64,000 nt of DNA from contig OY969701.1 of NCBI GenBank assembly GCA_963702045.1, forward strand, positions 3,886,452-3,950,451. Reading direction: 5' to 3'. Shown here one piece after another: positions 1,124 through 56,552 of this stretch. Source of the DNA: Pyrinomonadaceae bacterium (GTDB lineage Bacteria; Acidobacteriota; Blastocatellia; Pyrinomonadales; Pyrinomonadaceae). The notes beneath the pieces are model-generated. The model was not told the origin of the DNA, did not search any database, and was given only the letters and a program-made list of their open reading frames with translations. Numbering within the stretch: position 1 is the stretch's first letter; the number at the start of each line of letters is the position of its first letter. The translations under genes and the position numbers were made by a program.

Positions 1124-1129
1124 CCAAAC

Positions 1130-1224
1130 GCAGTCAGGAAGGGGACCCTGTCCCCGCTGACTTTGGAACTCTCTTGAGTGCCAATGAAACCTGAGGCGGG
1201 GACAGGGTCCCCTTCCTGACTGCG
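1130..1224. repeat. Family A palindromic element, copy 1 of 3
   Basis: 28-nt arms GCAGTCAGGAAGGGGACCCTGTCCCCGC and its reverse complement flank a loop of about 39 nt. The same arms occur at 34279..34375 and 41359..41456 with unrelated loops. Confidence 0.9.
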
Positions 1225-2367: not shown

Positions 2368-3873
2368 ATGGCAGACGGATATGTGCTGGCGATAGACCAG
2401 GGAACTACGGGCACGAAGGTCATCGTCTTCGATCACGATTGCACGATTCGTTCGCGCGCGTACGCGGAGTTCACTCAGTACTACCCGCAGCCCGGTTGGG
2501 TCGAACACGACGCCCAAGAGATCTGGCTTTCATGCATCAGCCTGGTCGAACAAGCTTTGAAGCAAGCAGGCGTAGCCGCCGGCGAATTGCGCGCGATCGG
2601 AATTACGAACCAGCGCGAGACTACGCTGATCTGGGACAGAGAAACCGGCCAGCCCGTCATGAAGGCAATCGTCTGGCAAGACCGACGAACGTCGTCGATG
2701 TGTAACGACCTGAAGTTGATCGGGATGGAGCGCGGCATTCGCGGCAAGACCGGACTGGTTATCGATCCATACTTTTCCGCCACCAAACTCAAATGGATAT
2801 TCGACCACGCGCCGGGTTTGCGTGCGCGTGCAGAAACCGGCGCGCTGGCGTTTGGCACAATCGATTCATGGCTGGCCTGGAAACTGACCGGCGGGCGCGA
2901 ACACATAACCGATTATTCAAACGCGTCGAGGACGTTGCTTTACAACATTCACGACCTCACCTGGGACGCGGAGCTGTTGGAAGTCTTTGGCGTGCCGCGG
3001 GCGATTTTGCCGGCGGTCAAATCATCTTCCGAACTCTACGGACGAACCGACCCGTCGGTCTTTTTCGGCGAAGAGATCCCGGTGTCAGGAATCGCAGGTG
3101 ATCAGCAGGCCGCGCTTTTTGGCCAGGCTTGTTTCGACGCGGGCATGGCAAAAAACACATACGGCACCGGTTCGTTTCTGTTGATGCACACGGGCCAGGA
3201 GGTCGTAGAAAGCGATGAAGGGCTGTTGAGCACGATCGCGTGGCGCATCGGCGACGAGCCGGTCGAATACGCGCTGGAGGGCGCGATATTCATCACCGGC
3301 GCCGCCGTGCAATGGCTTCGCGATGGCTTGCAGATAATCGACTCAGCGGATGAGACCGAAGCGCTGGCCCAATCGATTGAATCGAACGACGGAGTCTATT
3401 TCGTTCCCGCGCTGGCCGGACTCGGCGCGCCGCATTGGGATCCGTTTGCGCGCGGAGCGCTGTTCGGAATAACTCGCGGCACAACCAGAGCGCATATCGC
3501 TCGTGCCACGCTGGAGAGCATCTGCTATCAAACCATAGACGTCGCCGATGCGATGAAACGCAATTCGGGCATTCCGCTCAAGGAGCTTCGGGTTGACGGC
3601 GGCGCGGTCAACAATAATTTTCTGATGCAGTTTCAGTCAGACATGCTCGGCGTGCCGGTCGAGGTCCCGCTGGTGACTGAAACGACTTCGCTGGGCGCCG
3701 CTTACCTGGCCGGACTCGCGGTCGGATTCTGGAAAAACCGGAAGGAATTGTCCGCGAGTTGGAAAGTCAAGAAGCGTTACGAACCGCAAATGGCGAAGCG
3801 CGAAAGAGACCGACTGTATCTTCGCTGGCTACGGGCGGTCGAGCGATCGAGAGAATGGGCTTGCGATGAATAA
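2368..3873 (+). CDS. glpK: glycerol kinase
   Basis: N-terminal [13 protein letters not shown], full-length FGGY-kinase pattern ([24 protein letters not shown]), about 500 aa. GGAAAGGAG Shine-Dalgarno sequence upstream of the ATG. Confidence 0.97.
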
Positions 3874-7421: not shown

Positions 7422-7510
7422 ATGTCAGATGCTAGATGTCGGATGTTAGATGTTGGTCTCGGTAGTCGTTCATTTCGAACTGATATCTAACATCTAACAT
7501 CCAACATCTG
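7422..7510. repeat. Family F hairpin with heptamer-repeat arms, copy 1 of 2
   Basis: Left arm is five tandem ATGYYRG units (7422..7456). Right arm is three to four complementary CYRRCAT units (about 7481..7507). The related element is at 9490..9615. Confidence 0.85.
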
Positions 7511-7934: not shown

Positions 7935-7992
7935 ATGTCCGACAAACTTTAGTTTGTCGCGTGTCATCGACAAACTAAAGTTTGTCGGACAT
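7935..7992. repeat. Family B palindromic element (double unit)
   Basis: ATGTCCGACAAACTTTAGTTTGTCG-CGTGTCAT-CGACAAACTAAAGTTTGTCGGACAT. The GTCCGACAAACT/AGTTTGTCGGAC core recurs at 8155, 33870, 42430, 53063 and 56458. Confidence 0.9.
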
Positions 7993-8068: not shown

Positions 8069-8144
<76 letters not shown>

Positions 8145-13782: not shown

Positions 13783-13900
13783 AAATTGAGTTTGTGTCCG
13801 CGGTGAAGTTTAGCACGCGGCTTCGTAGAGGTGATAGAGGACCTGTGGTTTAGCGTGTTAGTTCAAAAACTCAGTTGAATACCCGTGAAAGGGATGGGGT

Positions 13901-13965
13901 CCCGCAAAGACGCAAAGGAGTTGAGCCGCTCTGTATCTCTATTGATTTATTCGCGCCTTTGCGGG
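13901..13965. repeat. Family E hairpin (short copy)
   Basis: CCCGCAAAGACGCAAA ... TTCGCGCCTTTGCGGG inverted repeat. The CGCAAAGGCGCAAAG-type arms are shared with 15862, 31055, 43762 and 49806. Confidence 0.7.
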
Positions 13966-14031
13966 AACCTGCTTTCCACCGCGACTGGTACTGACTGGTT
14001 CGTGTCGCTTCCTCGATCTCTCCGTCCCGCC

Positions 14032-15420: not shown

Positions 15421-15644
15421 AGGGGTTTTCTCCTTTACTGGATGATTGGAAGCTCGCGACGTTGCAGGTGATGAAGGTCGTTGCGAAATCCGGCCGGCAG
15501 GAACGGTTGAAGGTCCTTCTTGATCTTTAGTCGGAACCGGTTTTTTCCAGAAGGCTAATCACTCGCTCGGTGAAGTCGCGCCAGCCCAAAACGATCGTGA
15601 GCATCGCTGTAGTTGATGCGGCCCGCTTACAGAGATCGACGACT

Positions 15645-15740
15645 GGTAAATAGTGAATGGTAAATGGTAAATAGAAGGTTCAGTGATCGCTCGGCGCTAT
15701 TTTCCATTTACCATTCACTATTTACGATTCACCATTTACC
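15645..15740. repeat. Family G hairpin with heptamer-repeat arms
   Basis: Left arm GGTAAAT AGTGAAT GGTAAAT GGTAAAT. Right arm has six complementary ATTYACY units. Single copy in this window. Confidence 0.85.
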
Positions 15741-18001: not shown

Positions 18002-18125
18002 GACGAACCACGAAATACACCAAACCGAAAACCAAAATCACACGAAGTAAATGACTTTTCTCGACGGGTTCCACTTGATTCGTGTAATTGGTTTTTCATT
18101 TTCTTCGTGCATTTCGTGGTTCGTC
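18002..18125. repeat. Family D MITE-like palindromic element, copy 2 of 4
   Basis: GACGAACCACGAAATAC ... GCATTTCGTGGTTCGTC termini and AAATCACACGAA / TTCGTGTAATTGG inner boxes. Confidence 0.9.
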
Positions 18126-18182
18126 TTTAACTTCTCCCTAACTACCTCTGTACTGTCATCCTAACGCCCTGGCCCTTCATCC

Positions 18183-21100
18183 TCACCCAATGTCCTGCGA
18201 ACGTAACGCGATGATCGTAGCGATGATCAAACCGAAAAACATTATGAGCAGGACGATCGGATTCAAAAGCGTGTGTCCCCACGGATGCAGGAAATTCACG
18301 TAATTGCTCAGATCTTCCGGGATCTTTACCGCCTCCTGAATCTTCGGCGCGGGCGCCAACTCCGGCGCAGCCGGTTTTTCCCCGCTGACGCCGCGCTGCA
18401 TGTCCGTCAGATACGTTTCCATTTTGTCCTGATAGTCCCTGGACTCTTTGTCGGCGTCTGACCGGTATTTCTCGATATCGGCTTTGGCCTGTTCGATGTT
18501 GTCTTCGTTTTTCTTCTCGACGTACTTGTAGACACCGCGCCCTTCGTTCGGACCATTAGGGTCCGAGCCCTCTTCTTCCAACGTGTCGAGACCAGACAGT
18601 CGTTTCATTTCGTCAAACGACCAGGTGGCCGGCATTGTCAGTCCGACTAACTTCGAAACTCCGGTGGGAACTCCGACCAGTCCCGAAAACAGAATCTGCG
18701 GAATCAGGATGAGCGGGACCAGGCTGGTGGCCATCTCGGAAGTCTTTACGATCGCGGAGATGAAAAGGCCCAGCGCGATTCCGACCATGCCTGTAACGAT
18801 CATGACCAGGAGTTGCGGGAAGCCGAATAACCACTCGGGCCAGGCCGGCAATTTCGTCAGGCCGGCTAGATCGAAAAGCTTCAGCGTGCCGAAAAGCAGA
18901 ACGCATTGAACGCCGACGATCAACGAAAGCACGAGCAGCTTCGAGCCGACGTATGGCAACAAGCCAAGATTGACCATCCGTTCGCGGTTGTAGACAGCCC
19001 GCTCGCGTATGATTTCGCGCGCCGCCACCGACGTGCCGAACCAAACGGCGACCAGAGCCAGAACAAAGAACGGAAAGTCGCGGGGCGCGTCCGCCGCCAC
19101 GACCAGATAGGTCAGTACCGCCACGATCGGCGCCTGGCCAAACAGGATCAGCAGGTTGAATTTGTCACGTCCGAGAACTTCCATGTATCGGCGCGCGAGC
19201 GTGGCCCATTGTCTGAGCGCGTCGGTCACACTTGGCCGGCGCTTGGCAGGCGCGTTGACCTGCATGTCGCGTTTGAGTCCGCTGAGCGGTTGGACGATGT
19301 TCTGCTGATACTGTGACGTCTGTTGGAATCTGCGTTTCCAATCGTTCGCGACCTCTTCCGAGATCTGTTCCTTGCGAAGCTTGAAATCCTTCTTCTGTTC
19401 GCCAGTAGAGTCGGGCGGAAGCGGCGGCATTTTCGCAACTTTATCGTCGATCGGCGCTTCCAGTTTGTCGTACAAGTCTTTGAAGCTGTCCGCCTTTACG
19501 TGGGCCAGCGCTTCCTGCGGCGCGCCGTAGAAAACAAGCTTGCCGCGCATCATGACCACGATCTTGTCGAACAGTTTCACGTTCTCCATCGCGTGCGTGG
19601 TCAGGATTACCGTGCGGCCACTCTCCGCGATCGTTCGGAACAGCCGCATGATCTTCTCTTCGGTAGCCGGATCAAGACCCGACGTCGGTTCGTCAAGAAA
19701 GATAACCGACGGTTTTGTGATGAGCTCGACAGCGATCGAAACGCGTTTTCGCTGGCCGCCGGACAATTGACCGACCGGAACATCGCGTCGTTCTGCCAGG
19801 CCTGTGACGTCCATCACCTCGCTGACGATCTGATCAATTTCCTGTTTCGAAACGTCGCTCGAGAGGCGCAGTCGCGCGACATAGTAAAGCGTGCGATAGA
19901 CGGTCAACTCGCGGTGAATGATGTCGTCCTGCGGAACGTAGCCGATCGACTGCTTGATCGAATCCAGATGCTGATAGAGATCCAGGTTGTTGATCAGCAC
20001 GTGGCCGCTGGAAGCAGGCCGCATCCCGTTGAGCGAATCCATCAGCGTCGACTTGCCGGCTCCCGACGGACCCAACAGTCCGACAAACTCGTTCGGCTGG
20101 ATCGTCAGGTCGACATCGTCGAGCAGCTTTATCATCCCGCCGCCCGAGCGGTTTTTCACTTCTTTCGTAATGTCGATGCAATCGATTCGCGTTTTTGAAC
20201 GCGTGTCAAAAATCGCTACGCCGCGCTGTGCATCCGCTTGAAGAACGAACGGACCGATCTGAACTACGTCCTGGTTTTGAACCGGACGACGGCCGGTTAT
20301 GCGGGTTCCGTTTACGTAGACTCCGTTGGTCGAGCCGGCATCTTCGATAAAGACGCTGCTGCCCTGTTGCTTTACGGTGGCGTGGTGATTCGAGATCTGC
20401 AGTCCGTCGAGCCGGATATCGTTGTCAGGTGCGCGACCGATAGAAAGTTGCGCCCGTCCGTCAAACGCGAGCTGCATCAAGAGCTGAGGCTGCGCACCGC
20501 CCTGCGACGGATGCGGCATTTGCTGGCTGAGCGAACCTGAGCCCGGCTTGACCACCATCGTGCCCATGTGGACGCCCTGCCGGGGCGATACAGGAGCCGG
20601 GCCGCCACCGACCGCGGGGACTGCGCCGCTGACGTTGCGTTGCGCTGCGGGCTGTCCGGCCGCCAGAGCCGGATGGGCCGGATCGTTAAATCTGAGAATC
20701 GGACCGCCCATTCCCAACTGAAGTCGATCGCCGTCATACAAAGGCGTCGGCGCGGTTATGCGCTGGTCGTTGATCAGCGTTCCGTTAAAACTGCCCAGAT
20801 CAAACAGAACGCATTGGCCGTCTCGTCGTCGGATTTCAGCGTGCTTGCGCGAGACCACCGCAGAGTCGGCATCGATGACAACGTCTGCGGCCGGGTCGCG
20901 GCCGAGGAGTATCACTTCCTTGTCACTGATCGTTACCCGCTCCATTTTGCCGGTCGCCGATCGCAGCAATTCGATCGTCGGTTGCGCCGCAGACGGCGCG
21001 GATTTTTTTGGCGGAGGCGGAGCAGCGGGGGGTGGTGGCGGAGGCGGAGCTACTGCAGCCGGTGGCGGCGCTGCGGGTGGTTTCGGGGCTGCTGGTTTTT

Positions 21101-21542
21101 GTGCCGGCGGAGGTGGCGGAGACGGGGCGGCCGGTTTGACGGGTTCCTGAACTGCCATACCCGACGGCAAGTCGCGATGCGTTTCCATATCGGCGCGAAC
21201 CGGCGGGGGCTGCTGTAGCGGTGCCGCAGATTCAATTCGCGCGACACGCATCACGGGACCACCCGCGCCGAACTGAATACTGGCTCCGGATTTGATTTCG
21301 GTCGGCTCGCTGACTCGCTGGCCGTTGACGAAAGTTCCAAAGCTGGAATTCGTATCAACCAGCAAACACCGCTCGTCCTTCAAACGAAACTCGGCATGTC
21401 TGCGCGAGACCATGGGCCATTCTGTCTGGTCGAACACGATGTGACATTCAGAAGGGTCGCGTCCGACTTTGACGGTCTGTTGATCAAACGAGCGCTCGCC
21501 GCGCTGCTGTCCATTGCGTTCTTCGATTAGAACGATTTTCAT
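18183..21542 (-). CDS. ABC exporter (fused ATPase plus ABC-2 permease) with three N-terminal FHA domains
   Basis: Three FHA cores (GRDPSECHIVF..VSRRHAEF..SSFGTFVNG; GRDPAADVVI..VSRKHAEI..SFNGTLIND; GRAPDNDIRL..ISNHHATV..STNGVYVNG) are separated by Pro-rich linkers. Then Walker A GPSGAGKST, LSGGQRKR, IFLDEPTSGLD, and about six C-terminal TM helices. Confidence 0.93.
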   Translation of the reverse strand: MKIVLIEERNGQQRGERSFDQQTVKVGRDPSECHIVFDQTEWPMVSRRHAEFRLKDERCLLVDTNSSFGTFVNGQRVSEPTEIKSGASIQFGAGGPVMRVARIESAAPLQQPPPVRADMETHRDLPSGMAVQEPVKPAAPSPPPPPAQKPAAPKPPAAPPPAAVAPPPPPPPAAPPPPKKSAPSAAQPTIELLRSATGKMERVTISDKEVILLGRDPAADVVIDADSAVVSRKHAEIRRRDGQCVLFDLGSFNGTLINDQRITAPTPLYDGDRLQLGMGGPILRFNDPAHPALAAGQPAAQRNVSGAVPAVGGGPAPVSPRQGVHMGTMVVKPGSGSLSQQMPHPSQGGAQPQLLMQLAFDGRAQLSIGRAPDNDIRLDGLQISNHHATVKQQGSSVFIEDAGSTNGVYVNGTRITGRRPVQNQDVVQIGPFVLQADAQRGVAIFDTRSKTRIDCIDITKEVKNRSGGGMIKLLDDVDLTIQPNEFVGLLGPSGAGKSTLMDSLNGMRPASSGHVLINNLDLYQHLDSIKQSIGYVPQDDIIHRELTVYRTLYYVARLRLSSDVSKQEIDQIVSEVMDVTGLAERRDVPVGQLSGGQRKRVSIAVELITKPSVIFLDEPTSGLDPATEEKIMRLFRTIAESGRTVILTTHAMENVKLFDKIVVMMRGKLVFYGAPQEALAHVKADSFKDLYDKLEAPIDDKVAKMPPLPPDSTGEQKKDFKLRKEQISEEVANDWKRRFQQTSQYQQNIVQPLSGLKRDMQVNAPAKRRPSVTDALRQWATLARRYMEVLGRDKFNLLILFGQAPIVAVLTYLVVAADAPRDFPFFVLALVAVWFGTSVAAREIIRERAVYNRERMVNLGLLPYVGSKLLVLSLIVGVQCVLLFGTLKLFDLAGLTKLPAWPEWLFGFPQLLVMIVTGMVGIALGLFISAIVKTSEMATSLVPLILIPQILFSGLVGVPTGVSKLVGLTMPATWSFDEMKRLSGLDTLEEEGSDPNGPNEGRGVYKYVEKKNEDNIEQAKADIEKYRSDADKESRDYQDKMETYLTDMQRGVSGEKPAAPELAPAPKIQEAVKIPEDLSNYVNFLHPWGHTLLNPIVLLIMFFGLIIATIIALRSQDIG

Positions 21543-21549
21543 AGGGGAT

Positions 21550-22372
21550 GCTTTCTGTAAGAACTCAGGAGTCAGAAGTCAGGAGTCAGAATAAGAACTC
21601 TGGTAGGCTTGCCTCCTGTGTTCTGTCTCCTGACTTCTGTCTCCTGCCTTTCAGCTTTCTGTAAGAACTCAGGAGTCAGAAGTCAGGAATCAGAATAAGA
21701 ACTCTGGTAGGCTTGCCTCCTGTGTTCTGTCTCCTGACTTCTGTCTCCTGACTTCTGTCTCCTGACTTCTGTCTCCTGCTTTTCAGCTTTCTGTAAGAAC
21801 TCAGGAGTCAGAATAAGAACTCTGGTAGGCTTGCCTCCTGTGTTCTGTCTCCTGACTTCTGTCTCCTGCTTTTCAGCTTTCTGTAAGAACTCAGGAGTCA
21901 GGAGTCAGAATAAGAACTCTGGTAGGCTTGCCTCCTGTGTTCTGTCTCCTGACTTCTGTCTCCTGCTTTTCAGCTTTCTGTAAGAACTCAGGAGTCAGAA
22001 GTCAGGAATCAGAATAAGAACTCTGGTAGGCTTGCCTCCTGTGTTCTGCCTCCTGACTTCTGTCTCCTGTTTTTCAGCTTTCTGTAAGAACTCAGGAGTC
22101 AGGAATCAGAATAAGAACTCTGGTAGGCTTGCCTCCTGTGTTCTGTCTCCTGACTTCTGTCTCCTGCTTTTCAGCTTTCTGTAAGAACTCAGGAGTCAGG
22201 AATCAGAATAAGAACTCTGGTAGGCTTGCCTCCTGTGTTCTGTCTCCTGACTTCTGTCTCCTGCTTTTCAGCTTTCTGTAAGAACTCAGGAGTCAGGAAT
22301 CAGAATAAGAACTCTCGTAGGCTTGCCTCCTGTGTTCTGTCTCCTGACTTCTGTCTCCTGCTTTTTCAGCTT
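21550..22372. repeat. tandem array of 8 hairpin units (Family H, heptamer-repeat arms)
   Basis: Units start at 21550, 21654, 21786, 21876, 21973, 22077, 22174 and 22271, with lengths 104, 132, 90, 97, 104, 97, 97 and 98. Each unit is GCTTTCTGTAAGAACTC + (AGRAGTC)n + loop ATAAGAACTCTGGTAGGCTTGCCTCCTGTG + (TTCTGTC TCCTGAC)n + TGCTTTTCA. Confidence 0.95.
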
Positions 22373-24018
22373 TTTCCCAACGTGAACGAATTTAGAATCA
22401 TCGGCAGCTCCCCTTTGACGCCGACATCGTCAACGCTTTGGAGTTCGGGAGCCAACGACGTGGTTAGCATGTAGAGCGTCACGCCTTTTGAATTGTTTTC
22501 ATCTCCGGGAGGCAGGTAAACGACACGACCCCAAATGTTCATGTCACTCCCGTCCGGTCCCGCCGAGATTGCCTTGAAGCGAACTTCGTATCCTTCGATC
22601 CCGTTGATCGTGGTCTTGCCTTCCGAAACCTTCTGATATTCCGGTAACGTCTTCGAGTAATTCTCGTCCAATGCCTTGATCAGGTCCGGCAGTCGTCCGG
22701 CCAGGTCGGCTTCAATCGTGCCTTTGCTGTCGTACCAGCTAACGGCCAGATCTTCCTGCGTTTTATCTGGCGGAAGCCGTCGCTCGACTTCCACGAAATT
22801 GGCGGCGCCGGGCACTCCGGCTTTGGGACTTTTTTGCCACGACTGCGGATAGTAGAAATAGAAATCAACGTAGTGCTCGGCAAGTTTTCCGTCCAGCGTG
22901 TCCTTCGTGTTTTCAAACTTGATCGAACCCGGCGGAGCATCCGGCACTTTTACCGCTTGCGTCGGGGACGGGCTGGCGGCGACGTTCGCGTTGCGATTGT
23001 TATTAATAGTTGGATCGACGGTTACAACTCCGCCGTCGTCTTTCGGCGCCTTGTTACGAATAAAGATGAAGTACGCACCCACTCCTCCGGCGATCAAAAG
23101 CAAGAGAACGAGGACGCCGCCAACCGCCAGAACCAATCCGAGCTTCGATTTTTTTTGCGGCGCCGCGGGCGGCTGATTGATCGGGCCCGTCGTTGGCGTC
23201 GTTGGCGTCGTGGGCGTCGTGGGCGTCGTGGGCGTCGTTGGCGTCGTGGGCGCCGAGGGCTGTGCAGCGGATTGCGGACCCAGCTGCTGACTAAACTGGC
23301 TGTCAAAAGTCGGGGTTTCGCGGTGTGATTCGCGCGAAGCGTCCATCGGTCCCGTTTGGAACGGCGCTCCGGTGGTGGGTGGAAGCGGCGGTGGAGCAGG
23401 CGGAGTCGGCGGCGCCATCATCGTCGGAAATTGCTGCGGCGGCGGAGATTGCGGCGGTGGAGATTGCCTCGGCGGCTCGGCTGCCGGTGGCTCTTCCGAA
23501 CGCAGTGGCGGCAATGGCTGCGAAAGCCTTGTTGTCTGTTGCTGCAGACCCTTGGTTTCTCCCGACGGACCAAAAGTGCTCGTGCCCAACAGCGTAGGCG
23601 CCGACGAAGGCGACACAGGAGGTTGTTGTTGTGAAGGCGGTTGTTGGGGCGGCTGAGCCTGTTGCGGAGGCGGAGGCGGTTGCTGTGGTGGCTGAGCCTG
23701 TTGCGGAGGCGCCGGTTGTTGCGGCTGCGGCGGCTGTGCTTGTTGCGGAGGCTGTGGTTGTGGCGGCTGCGGCTGTGGGGGCGTCGAGGGCAATGGTCCT
23801 GCAATCGTTGCGTTTAGGTCTTGCGGTCGCTCGGCCGGCTGTCGCGGAGCCGGCGGCGTTGTCGGAATATCCAAATTCGAGAGATGCCCCTGAACAGTAG
23901 CATTCGGATCAAAAACCTGCGGCCGTTCAAAATCCGGCACCAGCCTTCCGCCGTCGTGCGTACAGAACTTCTGCATGTCGTCCTGATAACTGCGATTACA
24001 TTTCGGGCAACGAAGCAT
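22366..24018 (-). CDS. zinc-ribbon, Pro/Gln-rich single-pass membrane protein with a C-terminal extracytoplasmic domain
   Basis: N-terminus MLRCPKCNRSYQDDMQKFCTHDGGRL, about 270 aa of P/Q low complexity including a (PTT)n tract, TM segment LGLVLAVGGVLVLLLLIAGGVGAYFIFI, and a C-terminal domain of about 220 aa of normal composition. Confidence 0.75.
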   Translation of the reverse strand: MLRCPKCNRSYQDDMQKFCTHDGGRLVPDFERPQVFDPNATVQGHLSNLDIPTTPPAPRQPAERPQDLNATIAGPLPSTPPQPQPPQPQPPQQAQPPQPQQPAPPQQAQPPQQPPPPPQQAQPPQQPPSQQQPPVSPSSAPTLLGTSTFGPSGETKGLQQQTTRLSQPLPPLRSEEPPAAEPPRQSPPPQSPPPQQFPTMMAPPTPPAPPPLPPTTGAPFQTGPMDASRESHRETPTFDSQFSQQLGPQSAAQPSAPTTPTTPTTPTTPTTPTTPTTGPINQPPAAPQKKSKLGLVLAVGGVLVLLLLIAGGVGAYFIFIRNKAPKDDGGVVTVDPTINNNRNANVAASPSPTQAVKVPDAPPGSIKFENTKDTLDGKLAEHYVDFYFYYPQSWQKSPKAGVPGAANFVEVERRLPPDKTQEDLAVSWYDSKGTIEADLAGRLPDLIKALDENYSKTLPEYQKVSEGKTTINGIEGYEVRFKAISAGPDGSDMNIWGRVVYLPPGDENNSKGVTLYMLTTSLAPELQSVDDVGVKGELPMILNSFTLGKS

Positions 24019-28458: not shown

Positions 28459-28748
28459 GGGGGAAGGGGTCAGGGGTCGGGGGTCGGGGGCCGGGGGCCG
28501 GGGGTCGGGGGCCGGGGGACGGGGGCCGGGGGCCGGGGGCCGGGTTTTGGGTTTTGGGTTTTGGGTTTTGGGTTTTCAGATTTTGGTTCGATGTTCTGAA
28601 ATCTCAAATTGGAATCTGGCCCTCCGACCCCCGACCCCCAGCCCCCGTCCCCCGGCCCCCGACCCCTGCCCCCCGTCCCCCGTCCCCCGTCCCCCTGCCC
28701 CCCGTCCCCCGACCCCCAGCCCCCCTCCCTCCCCTCTTCCCTCTTCTG
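28459..28748. repeat. G-run / C-run heptamer palindrome (Family I)
   Basis: Plus strand: about a dozen GGGGNCR heptamers (28459..28541), five GGGTTTT units (28542..28576), a spacer of about 40 nt, then at least 15 C4-6 runs in CCCCCNN heptamers (28619..28748). It ends 13 nt before the ATG at 28762. Confidence 0.9.
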
Positions 28749-33869: not shown

Positions 33870-33966
33870 ATGTCCGACAAGCTTTAGCTTGTCGACGACT
33901 TGCCCGGGCTTGAAGCCTCGTATGTCGACGACAAACTGAAGTTTGTCGGACATTCTTGTCGGACAT
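33870..33966. repeat. Family B bipartite palindromic element
   Basis: TGTCCGACAAGCTTTAGCTTGTCG, a 35-nt spacer, CGACAAACTGAAGTTTGTCGGACAT, plus an extra TTGTCGGACAT. The spacer resembles that of 56458..56552. Confidence 0.9.
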
Positions 33967-34278
33967 TTTTGCGACTATTGGTTTTTGAAGAAGGAGTATC
34001 GCCGCGTCAACCGCCGCGCAAGACTACGCGCGGGCGCCGAGCGGCACCGTAAGGGCGAGACAGGACAGATTGTAGGTTCGTATCATGATTTTTCTTGAAC
34101 TCAACTCTACTTAATCTGATCGTATCTTATCGTAGCGAATATCAGTTCGTCGAGTGGAAATAGGGTACTGGGTCAATTTGAAATCACGCCTTAAGAATCT
34201 CGTCAACGCCGAAGGCGTTACAATGCGAATTTCTTCAAACTGACCACTATCGGAAATAGACTGGTCTCTCAACCTAAT

Positions 34279-34375
34279 GCAGTCAGGAAGGGGACCCTGT
34301 CCCCGCTTGAAATTTGTATTTGCCTTTGAAATTATCCTTACTAGCGGCGGGGACAGGGTCCCCTTCCTGACTGCG
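34279..34375. repeat. Family A palindromic element, copy 2 of 3
   Basis: Arms identical to copy 1. The loop is unrelated. Confidence 0.9.
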
Positions 34376-41267: not shown

Positions 41268-41358
41268 GAGTTTCCCTTGATCTTCTAACTTTAGAATTTG
41301 TCCAATTCAGTGGCTTGAGCATTCAACCCTCATCGCCACATCTCACCTCTCCCACCAT

Positions 41359-41456
41359 GCAGTCAGGAAGGGGACCCTGTCTCCGCTTCTTAAGCTCTTT
41401 ATTTCAGCTTTGAGATCTGTTTGTTAGGCGGGGACAGGGTCCCGTTCCTGACTGCG
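41359..41456. repeat. Family A palindromic element, copy 3 of 3
   Basis: Arms carry one substitution each relative to copies 1 and 2. The loop is unrelated. Confidence 0.9.
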
Positions 41457-41509
41457 TTAGGTAGAGCAAATAGCTGACTCAGGCCGCCTGAGCTAAGTCA
41501 GCAGACTTC

Positions 41510-42520: not shown

Positions 42521-43819
42521 TTAACGAAAACGTCTCGGACTCGTTGGCTTCAACTTCCACCACGGATCTTTGCCCGGACTGACAAAATAAATTACGCCGG
42601 CAAAATCATCCGTGAAAAGAAATGAATCGGTGCCCACCCTCAACACGTCGACAGGCCGGCCGTACACTTTTCCGTTTTGAAGAAATCCGTTGATAAAATC
42701 CTGCGGCACTCCTTTGTCGCGCACCCGCATGATCGCGTAGCCGCGTTTCATTCCCAAATCGGATGAGCCGTGAAGTCCCACCAAAAAGCTGTTCTTCAAT
42801 CGCTCGTCCGAAGTGGTCGCCGGAAAGTGCTCGAAACCAAGCGGCGAGCTGTGCGCACTGAATGCCGTGTAGCCGGTCGGCACGGTCGAACATTTTTTCC
42901 GGTCTTTCGTAAATTTCGGGTCGGGAAAAATTCGCCGGCGGTACTCGTAACAATACGGCCAACCATAATCCGTATTTCCGCGAATGGCGAACATCGTATC
43001 ATCCGGCTTGTTTTTCCCCAGATGATCCGAGCCCATATTTGTCGCGAACAGCCGCCCGTTCACCCATCGCACTCCAACCGCGTTGCGCAAACCTTTGGCG
43101 AAGATTCGGCGATTCGATCCGTCCGGATCCATCTCGAGAATCGTGGCGCGCACGTCCTCTTTTTCTTCGCACGCGTTACAGCTGCTTCCAACCGACAGGT
43201 ACAGTTTGCCGTTGTCGCCGAACGCGATCGTCCGAGTTAAGTGCCAACCGCCGTATTTGTAGCTCAAGCCGTAGTCGGGAAACGTCGCCAGAGTTTGCGG
43301 CAACCCCGACGGAGAATTCTCACCCGCTCGATATTTGTATCGCACCAGTTTGTCAGTCAGGGCGAGATAGAACCAGCTTTGTCCCGAATCGTCGGTGTAG
43401 AAAGCGCAGCTGTTCGGATTGCGCAATCCAGTCATGTACGGCGTGACTTTGGCGAAGCGGCCCGTTTCGGCGTTGAAGTCGTCGAGGATGTAAACCGCGC
43501 CGCGCGTGTTGTCGGCCAGGTTATACATGTCCGTCACGAAAATCCGCTTGTCCGGACTTCGGGACATAAAGCGAACTCGCTTGAGGCCCTCGGCGGCGAC
43601 TCGGATGTCGTAGCCCTCGGGGACATTTAGCTTAAATGCTTTGCCGTTTTTGAGAGCGATGCTGTGCGGAACCAGCTTCAGGTTTTGGGCAAGTGACGAT
43701 GACGGCAATATAAAAAGGATGATTGTTAATGTCGCGGTGAGTGCAGCGAGAAGACGGCGTTCCCGCAAAGGCGCCAAGGCGCCAAGAAGAACGGAAGGCC
43801 TGAAATTATCTGATGTCAC
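42521..43819 (-). CDS. PQQ-dependent sugar (sorbosone/glucose-type) dehydrogenase, secreted
   Basis: Signal peptide. Beta-propeller pattern with GLRNPNS, GLRNAVG, GSDHLG, YGWPYCY and HSSPLG. GTG start overlaps the nfo stop (GTGA). Confidence 0.75.
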   Translation of the reverse strand: MTSDNFRPSVLLGALAPLRERRLLAALTATLTIILFILPSSSLAQNLKLVPHSIALKNGKAFKLNVPEGYDIRVAAEGLKRVRFMSRSPDKRIFVTDMYNLADNTRGAVYILDDFNAETGRFAKVTPYMTGLRNPNSCAFYTDDSGQSWFYLALTDKLVRYKYRAGENSPSGLPQTLATFPDYGLSYKYGGWHLTRTIAFGDNGKLYLSVGSSCNACEEKEDVRATILEMDPDGSNRRIFAKGLRNAVGVRWVNGRLFATNMGSDHLGKNKPDDTMFAIRGNTDYGWPYCYEYRRRIFPDPKFTKDRKKCSTVPTGYTAFSAHSSPLGFEHFPATTSDERLKNSFLVGLHGSSDLGMKRGYAIMRVRDKGVPQDFINGFLQNGKVYGRPVDVLRVGTDSFLFTDDFAGVIYFVSPGKDPWWKLKPTSPRRFR

Positions 43820-43862
43820 GCTTTTGCTTTGCTCTTTCCTGGCGCCTTTGCGCCTTTGCCGG
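43762..43862. repeat. Family E palindromic element lying inside two coding sequences
   Basis: CCCGCAAAGGCGCCAAGGCGCCAAGAA ... TTCCTGGCGCCTTTGCGCCTTTGCCGG (24 of 27 complementary). The arms encode the tail of Nfo (GKGAKAPGK) and the N-terminus of the dehydrogenase (LGALAPLRE). Confidence 0.75.
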
Positions 43863-44727
43863 AACCAATCGTTTCAGAGCTTACAAACGAACGCAGCTCA
43901 GACAAATTCTTCGCATCGGCCTCTGGATCGTCCTGCGGAGTTTCGAGTAAGAACGCCGCGTGCGCAAGTTTTGGATGTTGCGCTACTCGCTCTAACGCGT
44001 CGCGTCCGATATGACCTTCTCCGATATGCCAGTGGCGATCTACGCGCGAATTGTATGCGGCACGCGAATCGTTAAAGTGAACTGCGCGGACATTCTTTGT
44101 CCCGACGTTTTTCGTCAACGATTGAATCGTCGATGCAAGCCCATCCTCGTCGCGTATGTCGTAGCCGGACGTGAACGCATGAGCAGTGTCAAAACAAACG
44201 CCAAGATTCAGCTCACGGCAGTCGGCCATAATTTCGCGCAGATGTTCGAACCGGTGACCGATGCACGCGCCTTGACCCGCTGTGTTCTCGATCAGGATAC
44301 GAAACGAACCCATATTAATTCCGCGACAAGCGGTTTTCAGACTCGCGGAGCAGGTCCGAATTCCTTCCTCTTCTGTGTATCCCTTGCTGCTTCCGGGATG
44401 TACCACGAGATAGTCGGCTTTCAACAAAATTCCGCGTTCAACCTCTTCGCGAAATGACGCTATCGATTTTTCGCGCATTGCTTCGTCCGACGCGGCCAGG
44501 TTGATCAGGTAGTTCGCGTGTATCACGACCGGCGAAATTTTTGTCTTCACTCTTACTTCGCGAAAGGTCTCGATCTCCTCGATCGAAAGCGGTCGCGCCA
44601 TCCAGCCGCGCGGGTTGCGCGAGAAGATCTGCACAGTGTTGCATCCACGCTCGCGTGCTTTGATCAGCGCGTTCTGAAGCCCGCCGGCGATGGGTGCGTG
44701 ATAACCAATCTTTCGAACTTTAGTCAT
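43816..44727 (-). CDS. nfo: endonuclease IV (AP endonuclease 2 family)
   Basis: IGYHAPIAGG, VQIFSRNPRGW, HANYLINLAS, VVHPGS, ENTAGQG, CFDTAHAF, HFNDS and DRHWHIGEG metal-ligand pattern. Carries a Lys/Ala tail of about 20 aa derived from the repeat. Confidence 0.93.
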   Translation of the reverse strand: MTKVRKIGYHAPIAGGLQNALIKARERGCNTVQIFSRNPRGWMARPLSIEEIETFREVRVKTKISPVVIHANYLINLAASDEAMREKSIASFREEVERGILLKADYLVVHPGSSKGYTEEEGIRTCSASLKTACRGINMGSFRILIENTAGQGACIGHRFEHLREIMADCRELNLGVCFDTAHAFTSGYDIRDEDGLASTIQSLTKNVGTKNVRAVHFNDSRAAYNSRVDRHWHIGEGHIGRDALERVAQHPKLAHAAFLLETPQDDPEADAKNLSELRSFVSSETIGSGKGAKAPGKSKAKA

Positions 44728-56457: not shown

Positions 56458-56552
56458 ATGTCCGACAAATGTCCGACAAGCTTTAGCTTGTCGCTGACTT
56501 GCCCAGCCTTTGAGCCGCAAAAGCCGACGACAAACTGAAGTTTGTCGGACAT
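56458..56552. repeat. Family B bipartite palindromic element
   Basis: ATGTCCGACAA + ATGTCCGACAAGCTTTAGCTTGTCG, a 35-nt spacer, CGACAAACTGAAGTTTGTCGGACAT. It starts 2 nt after the asnB stop and ends 5 nt before the next ATG. Confidence 0.9.

Follow-up and report, generated by a model that had tools for sequence, protein, structure and literature searches.

Eight tandem copies of a heptamer-armed intercistronic hairpin spacer upstream of an FHA-ABC exporter gene in a Pyrinomonadaceae bacterium

Tandem copies of palindromic units in strain-variable number are known from BIME-2, a type of bacterial interspersed mosaic element (BIME), and the stem-loops of BIMEs and of repetitive extragenic palindromes (REPs) have been credited with mRNA stabilisation and terminator action (PMC3333891). 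In Xanthomonas, inverted pairs of GGGAATC heptamers have been described, which keep their position and vary in length (Rehm et al. 2015, PMC4692102). The hmw1A and hmw2A genes of Haemophilus influenzae carry an (ATCTTTC)n hairpin in the 5' untranslated region (5'-UTR), which is cleaved by RNase III, and expression of HMW1A is inversely proportional to repeat number (PMC12721329). Heptamers are, according to Mrazek et al. 2007 (cited in PMC4679880 and PMC4692102), the long simple sequence repeat (SSR) unit that is most prone to slippage in bacteria. Here, we analyze a stretch of 64,000 nt from the genome of a Pyrinomonadaceae bacterium (contig OY969701.1, positions 3,886,452 to 3,950,451; subsequently designated the window), in which the gap between a gene for a hypothetical protein and the gene for an FHA-ABC exporter is filled by eight tandem copies of the complete intercistronic spacer, each of them a hairpin unit with arms of tandem heptamers. 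Taken as a whole, a lineage-specific, eightfold in-place duplication of the spacer that likely decouples or attenuates the exporter is, in our view, a reasonably probable explanation for this locus.

Tandem Repeats Finder (TRF) detected just one large array, which spans 21550-22373 with a period of 97, 8.0 copies, 89% matches and a score of 1190, and sub-arrays with a period of 14 were nested inside both halves, i.e. both arms, of each unit. Unit dissection, junctions and alignment place the array of eight spacer copies (819 nt) at 21550..22368 on the minus strand; the TRF interval ends 5 nt beyond unit 8, at 22373, because of an AAAGC microhomology, which is described below. TRF, dissection and gene context agree on eight tandem hairpin units between two genes, as had been noticed in an earlier reading of the sequence (subsequently designated the original prediction), and the eight-unit array is confirmed to be real. 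Split at the conserved linker, the units measure 104, 132, 90, 97, 104, 97, 97 and 98 nt, reproducing the lengths noted originally, and their differences are multiples of 7, apart from one additional T. In gene sense, i.e. on the minus strand, each unit has the layout TGA-AAA(A)G-5' arm-loop-3' arm-GAGTTCTTACAGAAAGC. The loop reads GGTAGGCTTGCCTCCTGTG, and a scan of the window retrieved eight occurrences of the loop motif GGCTTGCCTCCTGTG, all of them in the array. The arms are tandem runs of 7-nt repeats that converge on the loop, with a self-identity of 0.71-0.78 at lag 7 vs 0.1-0.38 at lags 5, 6, 8 and 9. The G+C content of the array is 0.47 vs 0.555 for the window. A coding repeat was rejected, as stops occur throughout all six frames of the array, leaving it without coding capacity, and as the unit lengths are not multiples of 3 throughout.

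Unit 1 (21550..21653, 104 nt, minus strand like all others), which is located nearest to the ABC start, is the only unit with matched arms: 24 of 26 positions are paired in its stem and the two T.T mismatches on the plus strand correspond to A.A mismatches on the sense RNA. The original prediction had ascribed this stem with its two T-T mismatches to every unit, which proved correct for unit 1 only. Unit 5 (21973..22076, 104 nt) has private single nucleotide polymorphisms (SNPs) and forms 23 of 26 pairs, and in the other six units the arm lengths differ by one to four heptamers without compensation, so that pairing needs a slipped register. On the plus strand, the 5' arm of these unequal-armed units measures 10, 17 or 24 nt vs 26 nt for the 3' arm, and 54 nt in unit 2 (21654..21785, 132 nt), in which four extra heptamers (28 nt) in one arm are unmatched in the other. 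Unit 3 (21786..21875), with 90 nt the shortest, has one arm short by two heptamers; unit 4 (21876..21972) measures 97 nt, and units 6 and 7 (22077..22270, 97 nt each) are identical to each other. Unit 8 (22271..22368, 98 nt), the first in sense direction, differs by a single SNP in the loop and an additional A/T. Variation between units is made up of whole heptamers gained or lost in a single arm and of five SNPs in a nested pattern, with two identical neighbouring units, and such one-arm heptamer changes are what slippage predicts. Thus, the structural part of the original prediction (hairpin units, gain and loss of heptamers, gene context) is borne out, while several of the roles it proposed are not, as discussed below.

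The origin of the units can be read from their junctions. The upstream gene (22366..24018, minus strand) encodes a 550-aa hypothetical protein without Pfam match, which ends with ..FTLGKS*; this C-terminus is conserved in orthologs and reads ..FTLGKS* in the closest relatives. Unit 8 opens with the genuine TGA stop codon of this gene (22366-22368). Before this first unit, the gene ends with ..TTC ACG TTG GGA AAA AGC TGA AAAAG followed by CAGGAG, making the 5' boundary of the array ..GGAAAAAGC TGA AAAAG followed by CAGGAG, and the stem begins 5 nt past the TGA. Internal linkers read ..ACAGAAAGC TGA AAAG followed by CAGGAG, i.e. ..GAGTTCTTACAGAAAGC TGA AAAG followed by CAGGAG, and AGC TGA, the last codon plus stop of the upstream gene, is retained in every one of them. 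At the 3' boundary, ..ACAGAAAGC is followed by ATCCCCTATG. The AAAGC microhomology (GCTTT on the plus strand) in the terminal part of the upstream gene (22369..22373, minus strand, codons ..AAA AGC) is identical to the AAAGC that terminates every unit and presumably marks the duplication junction. As AGC TGA is present in each linker and AAAGC at both ends, the unit corresponds to the entire stop-to-start spacer, duplicated head-to-tail. Sequence and relatives identify ATCCCCT (21543..21549, minus strand), directly before the ATG of the ABC gene, as the unduplicated rest of the basal spacer.

Next to this internal evidence stands a comparison of the same gap in 18 orthologous loci (L001, L002, L146, L147 and 14 of L123-L145), in which both the conserved upstream C-terminus and the ABC start were located. 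The gap measures 16-165 nt in these loci and is arrayed in none of them, whereas the window gap of 823 nt is five times as long as the largest. Four loci (L123, L124, L127, L141) have a gap of 16 nt without hairpin, two (L138, L139) have a gap of 56-64 nt with weak structure and the remaining twelve have a gap of 99-165 nt without array. The gaps of ~100 nt contain exactly one long hairpin with tandem-heptamer arms, the heptamer differing by locus: GGAACTC in L001, GCAGTNG in L002, CAGTTTT in L128, TTTTGAA in L132 and TAGGACR in L146, with a degraded one in L145. Gap palindromes of other kinds are present in the more distant relatives L129, L130 and L142. The most informative loci are L146 and L147, whose ABC proteins cluster with the window protein at >=90% identity. 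In L147, whose ABC gene is 92.6% identical to that of the window in amino acids and 88% in nucleotides, the gap contains a single hairpin built of GGAGACA/GGAGTCA heptamers as in the window and with a homologous loop (CAGAATACGGGAGGCAG..ATTCTG). In L146, the 5' flank AGC TGA AAAGCAGGA is identical to the window, and the single hairpin consists of TAGGACR heptamers. Altogether, six loci (L001, L002, L128, L132, L146, L147) carry heptamer palindromes at the same gap, with six different heptamers, and in all six the unpaired spacer outside the hairpin measures 20-28 nt; the corresponding value in the window is 5 + 23 = 28 nt. Copy-number variation across orthologous loci, which the original prediction had suggested to look for, is thus borne out, with one copy or none in the relatives vs eight in the window, and the gap comparison indicates that the eight-copy state arose after the split from the L147 lineage. 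Judged from these gaps, a short basal spacer was colonised by a palindrome, which is dispensable and turns over fast.

We propose that the ancestral spacer of ~100 nt would have consisted of the basal 20-28 unpaired nucleotides, split by one long palindrome with arms of GGAGACA/GAAGTCA heptamers and their complements. The first duplication would have joined two AAAGC microhomologies, one within the terminal codons of the upstream gene, the other 7 nt ahead of the ABC ATG, which explains why each unit carries a copy of AGC-TGA. Subsequently, copy number would have been raised via unequal recombination or slippage between units, while heptamer slippage within single arms would have generated the 7-nt length differences, leaving the other arm uncompensated. 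Quasipalindromes are reportedly perfected by intramolecular template switching, as described by Ripley and by the Lovett laboratory, and this may be a mechanism operating here. At the level of sequence, origin by duplication of the resident spacer, lineage specificity, membership in the class of elements discussed below and lack of coding capacity can be regarded as demonstrated. Of note, the upstream protein itself contains internal low-complexity tandem repeats (window 23188-23773, minus strand; TRF periods 9-42), and has 550 aa vs 458-527 aa in orthologs; repeat region and extra length together indicate that repeat expansion also affects the coding sequence beside the array.

What could the array do to the gene downstream of it? 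This gene (18183..21542, minus strand) encodes a fusion protein of 1119 aa, in which three FHA domains are combined with an ABC ATPase and an ABC-2 permease according to Pfam (FHA 7e-61, ABC_tran 1e-31, ABC2_membrane 1.5e-13). Orthologs of the FHA-ABC protein were found in Pyrinomonadaceae (Acidobacteriota annotation), and the array is set in a kinase-TPR-hypothetical-ABC operon that is conserved in this acidobacterial family. In agreement with the original prediction, the exporter start has no Shine-Dalgarno (SD) sequence of its own: the context in the window, GCATCCCCTATG, has no SD core. The start is SD-less in every ortholog as well, reading CCCCTATG, or GTCCCAATG at the 16-nt gaps (window 21535-21549; L001 9990-10003; L002 9990-10003; L123 2701-2719), vs 30 of 45 called genes with an SD core in four related loci. 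This difference suggests that the exporter may be translated by termination-reinitiation coupling, making it obligatorily dependent on the upstream gene. Since no promoter of its own was found, since terminator-like sites are at chance level and since the two genes are a mere 16 nt apart in some orthologs, the array is probably transcribed within the polycistronic operon mRNA, in which it would form ~8 stem-loops of 17-26 bp. With one folded hairpin, stop and start would be separated by ~25 unpaired nucleotides, not far from the 16 nt that separate them where the hairpin is missing; with eight units, the unpaired path would be stretched to ~190 nt, and the eight helices might serve as barriers to 3'-exonucleases, as RNase III substrates or as pause sites. 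Most likely, the exporter would as a net effect be expressed less than the upstream kinase, TPR and hypothetical genes, or be uncoupled from them, to a degree that depends on copy number; copy number would then act as an attenuator, whether selected or as a neutral accident. Hairpins (REPs) within 15 nt of stop codons reportedly stall terminating ribosomes, according to Liang, Rudd and Deutscher in 2015. An experimental precedent for such an effect of repeat number is provided by the hmw hairpin of H. influenzae (PMC12721329). Among the roles contained in the original prediction, mRNA stabilisation or processing, by which the exporter would be uncoupled from the upstream genes, is plausible, and it is the effect that we favour.

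Comparison with described heptamer repeats assigns the single hairpin to a known but poorly understood kind of element, the inverted heptamer-SSR pairs originally reported from Xanthomonas (PMC4692102). These likewise consist of convergent heptamer SSR runs that form stem-loops of obscure function, and are intergenic, near the 3' end of the upstream ORF and mostly between co-directional genes, all of which matches the gap studied here. Their position is kept among relatives while length and sequence vary, again as at the window gap. However, Xanthomonas uses one G-rich heptamer genome-wide, while here each gap has its own heptamer, and tandem amplification of the whole hairpin plus spacer is not described there. 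The hmw loci (PMC12721329) share a long heptamer-SSR hairpin just upstream of a gene, whose repeat number is changed by slippage in hmw. With its 24-26 bp stems and inter-unit heptamer indels, the array is compatible with hmw in anatomy; in hmw, however, the SSR resides in one arm and the heptamer count varies, whereas the array has SSRs in both arms and mainly the number of whole units varies, and hmw is promoter-proximal, whereas the array is intercistronic. The heptamer repeats of cyanobacteria and those with the sequence TAACTGA in Beggiatoaceae (PMC4679880) are also tandem, intergenic and located beside start codons, and the arm motif of the array, CTCCTGAYTYCTGWCTCCTG, is frequent in cyanobacterial genomes; these repeats differ in being mostly plain direct arrays, neither palindromes nor arrays of hairpin units. 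Our literature search for the exact repeat sequence retrieved no paper containing it, and the single search in which Acidobacteria were named retrieved no description of heptamer palindromes there.

The single hairpins belong to a wider class. Applying the criteria stem >=16 bp, >=85% paired and loop <=60 nt, we counted 19 long hairpins in the window vs 0.55 in dinucleotide shuffles, nearly all of them intergenic. Two further heptamer-armed hairpins are located between co-directional minus-strand genes, one with AGATGTY repeats and a 23-bp stem (7434-7509) and one with TGGTAAA repeats and a 34-bp stem (15641-15730), and in both cases the heptamer is private to the gap. A giant heptamer palindrome upstream of the kinase gene (28464-28717) comprises ~11 copies of GGGGYCG, five of GGGTTTT, a loop and ~15 copies of CGRCCCC; its arms, G-rich and C-rich, have the potential to form G-quadruplexes and i-motifs, as do the Xanthomonas and Nostoc repeats (PMC4692102). 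More heptamer palindromes, besides that in the ABC gap, are present in L001 and L002. In both of these, an AGGATGA-heptamer palindrome follows the ABC gene (L001 13342-13452; L002 13300-13377), vs only degraded AGGATGA traces in the corresponding gap of the window (18100-18182; ..CATCCTAACGCC..CTTCATCCTCA..), which provides an example of palindrome decay. Among 22 heptamer hairpins, 15 of the 18 that could be classified have co-directional genes on both sides, and a distance of 4-7 nt from the stop codon to the 5' arm is typical. The sense version of the stem is the more stable one in 8 of the 22 (p=0.23), the difference averaging +1.8 kcal/mol, and since a sense/antisense bias is absent, the symmetry looks like a DNA-level feature. 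A degenerate scan with the arm motif, using one genome per species, retrieved at least 120 stretches vs ~9 expected by chance according to our own estimate. Among the matches listed, most are cyanobacterial direct heptamer arrays, and outside Acidobacteriota 116 solo direct heptamer runs were found vs 7 hairpins. Those listed from Acidobacteriota are mostly palindromes of the type [CAGRAGT]n-CAGAAT..loop..ATTCTG-[ACTYCTG]n at non-orthologous gaps, e.g. between accB and accC (L038) or before fabD (L073). The AGRAGTC palindromes among these matches (L010-L117, at least five phyla) have the purine arm first in 19 of 19 cases, and many of them contain CAGAAT..ATTCTG as an inner variant of the heptamer. 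As a general rule for heptamer palindromes, purine-rich-arm-first was rejected, since L128 and L132 have the T-rich arm first. No other tandem array of hairpin units was detected in 1.05 Mb beyond the window (1.11 Mb examined).

Palindromes and repeats of other kinds were encountered as well. A dispersed, non-heptamer palindrome, GCAGTCAGGAAGGGGACCCTGTCCCCGC.., occurs in three copies in the window (1129-1224, 34279-34374, 41357-41457; stem 28-32 bp, loop ~38 nt) and is a candidate REP/MITE-like family (MITE, miniature inverted-repeat transposable element), unrelated to the array. A second dispersed palindrome family, ATGTCCGACAARCTTTAG..CTAAAGYTTGTCGGACAT, is located at 7935-7992, 56469-56552 and 33943-33971. 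Palindromes with 8-9-nt repeats of the CAAAGRCGC type (window 13897-13969 and 43759-43865) form a second class of hairpins with periodic arms, which is also present in relatives (L001 1021-1070; L002 782-851 and 1842-1920; L130, gap 2869-3033). Finally, a TRF sweep detected a CRISPR-like array of period 73 with the repeat CTTTCAATTTAAATAATCCCGCTTGCGGGATTGAAAC in Mastigocoleus testarum (L061 96-568).

Predicted folding bears on what the hairpins might do as RNA. On both strands, the units form structures far more stable than those of dinucleotide shuffles (unit 1: -46.1 kcal/mol in sense, z -5.1, and -50.0 kcal/mol in antisense, z -6.6; unit 6: -33.2 kcal/mol sense, z -3.5, and -34.8 kcal/mol antisense, z -3.7). 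However, the AGGAGG present in all eight loops, which had been thought to be exposed, is not predicted to be so: its GGAGG is paired to CCUACC, giving an apical mini-stem of 5 bp in the minimum free energy (MFE) as well as the centroid structures. We therefore consider it highly improbable that the array acts as a ribosome standby or loading platform, whose eight loops would offer AGGAGG to 30S subunits that subsequently slide to the ABC start. This start is indeed truly SD-less, with most genes of the lineage having an SD core, and L147, the only relative with a homologous loop, has GGGAGG too. But the nearest loop is ~60 nt away from the ATG, and among the relatives the loop GGAGG is shared only by L147, with neither GGAGG nor another SD-like motif in the single-hairpin loops of L001, L002, L128, L132 and L146. 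Moreover, the same SD-less start is found in orthologs with a 16-nt hairpin-free gap, indicating that it is independent of any hairpin. Tandem small RNA (sRNA) genes are a further proposal of the original prediction, and in the NsiR1 array of Nostoc each repeat is said to have its own promoter and terminator. The units share with NsiR1 the tandem arrangement of short, near-identical, structured intergenic units, and on the plus strand each strong stem is followed by CTTTTCAGCTTT. That they represent sRNA genes is nevertheless very unlikely: no sigma-70-like promoter was found on either strand within 21000-23000 using an E. coli-type consensus, which may miss acidobacterial promoters, no terminator passed the scan at the unit stems, and in relatives the single copy sits between stop and start, in a gap of 99-112 nt and 4-7 nt after the stop, without room for a promoter. 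Rfam 15 at permissive thresholds returned for the array only generic miRNA-hairpin matches of 17-33 bits vs thresholds of 50-100, and at gathering level no family at the array; in the whole window the sole match at this level is a tRNA gene (8069-8141). The same scans address a cluster-of-hairpins terminator, sense or bidirectional, which would end the upstream transcript and insulate against antisense transcription. In its favour, the hairpins begin 5 nt after the stop codon, hairpin clusters <=80 nt from stops have been proposed as U-tract-independent intrinsic terminators (PMC8355165) and the plus-strand tail of the stem, GCTTTTCAGCTTT, is T-rich, in line with the terminator-like appearance that had been pointed out for this strand. 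Yet the consensus scan, covering 2 kb, yielded 3 sites vs 3.2 in shuffles and none at the unit stems, and the units do not show the combination of GC-rich stem, short loop and immediate U-tract that characterises an intrinsic terminator; the tails read AGUUCUUAC in sense, without canonical U-tract, and CUUUUCAGCUUU in antisense. Efficient termination would also orphan the ABC gene, as the ATG follows 24 nt after the end of the last unit and a promoter was not detected, and the 16-nt gaps of orthologs show co-transcription of the genes. A role as antisense barrier or terminator is at most weakly suggested, and as an explanation of the array we regard the terminator as unlikely.

In its architecture, the array comes closest to a REP/BIME-2 cluster. 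Both such a cluster and the array are intergenic and non-coding with inverted arms alternating with two conserved spacers (here the loop and the inter-unit linker), both have tandem copies that are well conserved within the locus and differ in number between relatives (here 8 vs 1 vs 0), and BIME-2 is transcribed in operons, where its stem-loops affect mRNA fate (PMC3333891). Considering also that AGRAGTC palindromes of uniform polarity occupy non-orthologous sites in many Acidobacteriota among the matches listed, the array might be a mobile palindrome cluster amplified by a REP-associated tyrosine (RAYT, Y1) transposase, as is BIME-2 in E. coli. We judge this quite unlikely, since the defining features that we tested are lacking. 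REPs are self-palindromes of 30-40 nt, whereas the arms of the array (CAGGAGT CAGAAGT ...) are direct heptamer repeats that pair only with the opposite arm and contain no self-folding imperfect palindrome of 20-40 nt. The GTAG/CTAC tag at the foot of REPs (PMC3333891) is missing as well: the feet read ..AGAACT followed by CAGGAG and CTCCTG followed by CTTTTC, and GTAG occurs only inside the loop (CTGGTAGGC). In addition, the unit is private to this locus in the sequence examined, as AGRAGTC heptamers or arms were found at no other gap in the 64-kb window and ~200 kb of related loci, and as the loop is absent from the arm-motif loci among the matches listed (at least 120) and, in a loop scan, from JGI metagenomes. 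Privacy of loop and heptamers speaks for evolution in place and against a REP/MITE-like family spreading within the genome, and the match between the unit boundaries and the native spacer, with its stop codon, fits duplication of resident DNA, not insertion. Amplification of the whole hairpin plus spacer to eight copies thus resembles the behaviour of BIME-2 without the features of REPs. An integron attC array was rejected, as there are no cassettes and no GTTRRRY core and as the flanks are syntenic, and so was a CRISPR array, as unique spacers are lacking and loop and linker are both conserved. The existence of eight copies could finally be questioned on technical grounds, i.e. the assembler might have over-expanded a single spacer, given that there is one assembly and that one unit differs by the length of a T homopolymer, a typical long-read error. 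This, too, is most improbable: the units are non-identical, differing by whole heptamers in specific arms and by five nested SNPs, the flanks are unique and collinear with orthologs, and an array of 0.8 kb is easily spanned by long reads, a long-read assembly being inferred from the contig size of 5.7 Mb.

Several points weigh against in-place spacer duplication with an attenuating effect. The strict purine-arm-first polarity of the AGRAGTC palindromes and their recurrence across phyla hint at more than neutral slippage, and equal stability of sense and antisense stems means that there is no positive sign of selection on mRNA structure. The copy number derives from a single assembly, the sigma-70 consensus may have overlooked promoters, and dispersed copies of the unit or a dedicated amplifying enzyme such as a RAYT-type transposase may exist elsewhere in the genome. 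Furthermore, all that we propose for exporter expression is what we infer. Alternatively, the heptamer-armed palindromes next to stop codons might form a class of intercistronic elements that have a function and evolve in concert, in Acidobacteriota and, as regards the AGRAGTC type with its strict polarity, also in several other phyla. In such a class, the folded palindrome would bridge the stop codon and an SD-less start and let terminating ribosomes reinitiate across the helix base, and the number of heptamers, and here of whole units, would be a heritable and quickly mutating rheostat, i.e. a contingency locus, for the ratio between upstream proteins and the FHA-ABC exporter; we deem this rather unlikely.

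As an in-place duplication of its spacer, the locus is a clean natural example of how an intercistronic region grows, i.e. by duplication at a microhomology followed by amplification of units and heptamer slippage, with the single-copy ancestral state preserved in relatives. On present evidence, the array is neither a new mechanism nor a new kind of element. Arrays of this type are traps for short-read assembly, RNA-motif finders and CRISPR finders. Beyond the array, the analysis reveals an undescribed abundance of heptamer-repeat palindromes in operons of Acidobacteriota, located 4-7 nt after stop codons, whose arm sequence switches even between close relatives while palindromy is kept. Tuning of expression by SSRs has so far been demonstrated by experiment in pathogens, e.g. 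H. influenzae; if copy number of the array modulates coupling to the SD-less exporter, this principle would be extended to soil bacteria and to intercistronic regions.

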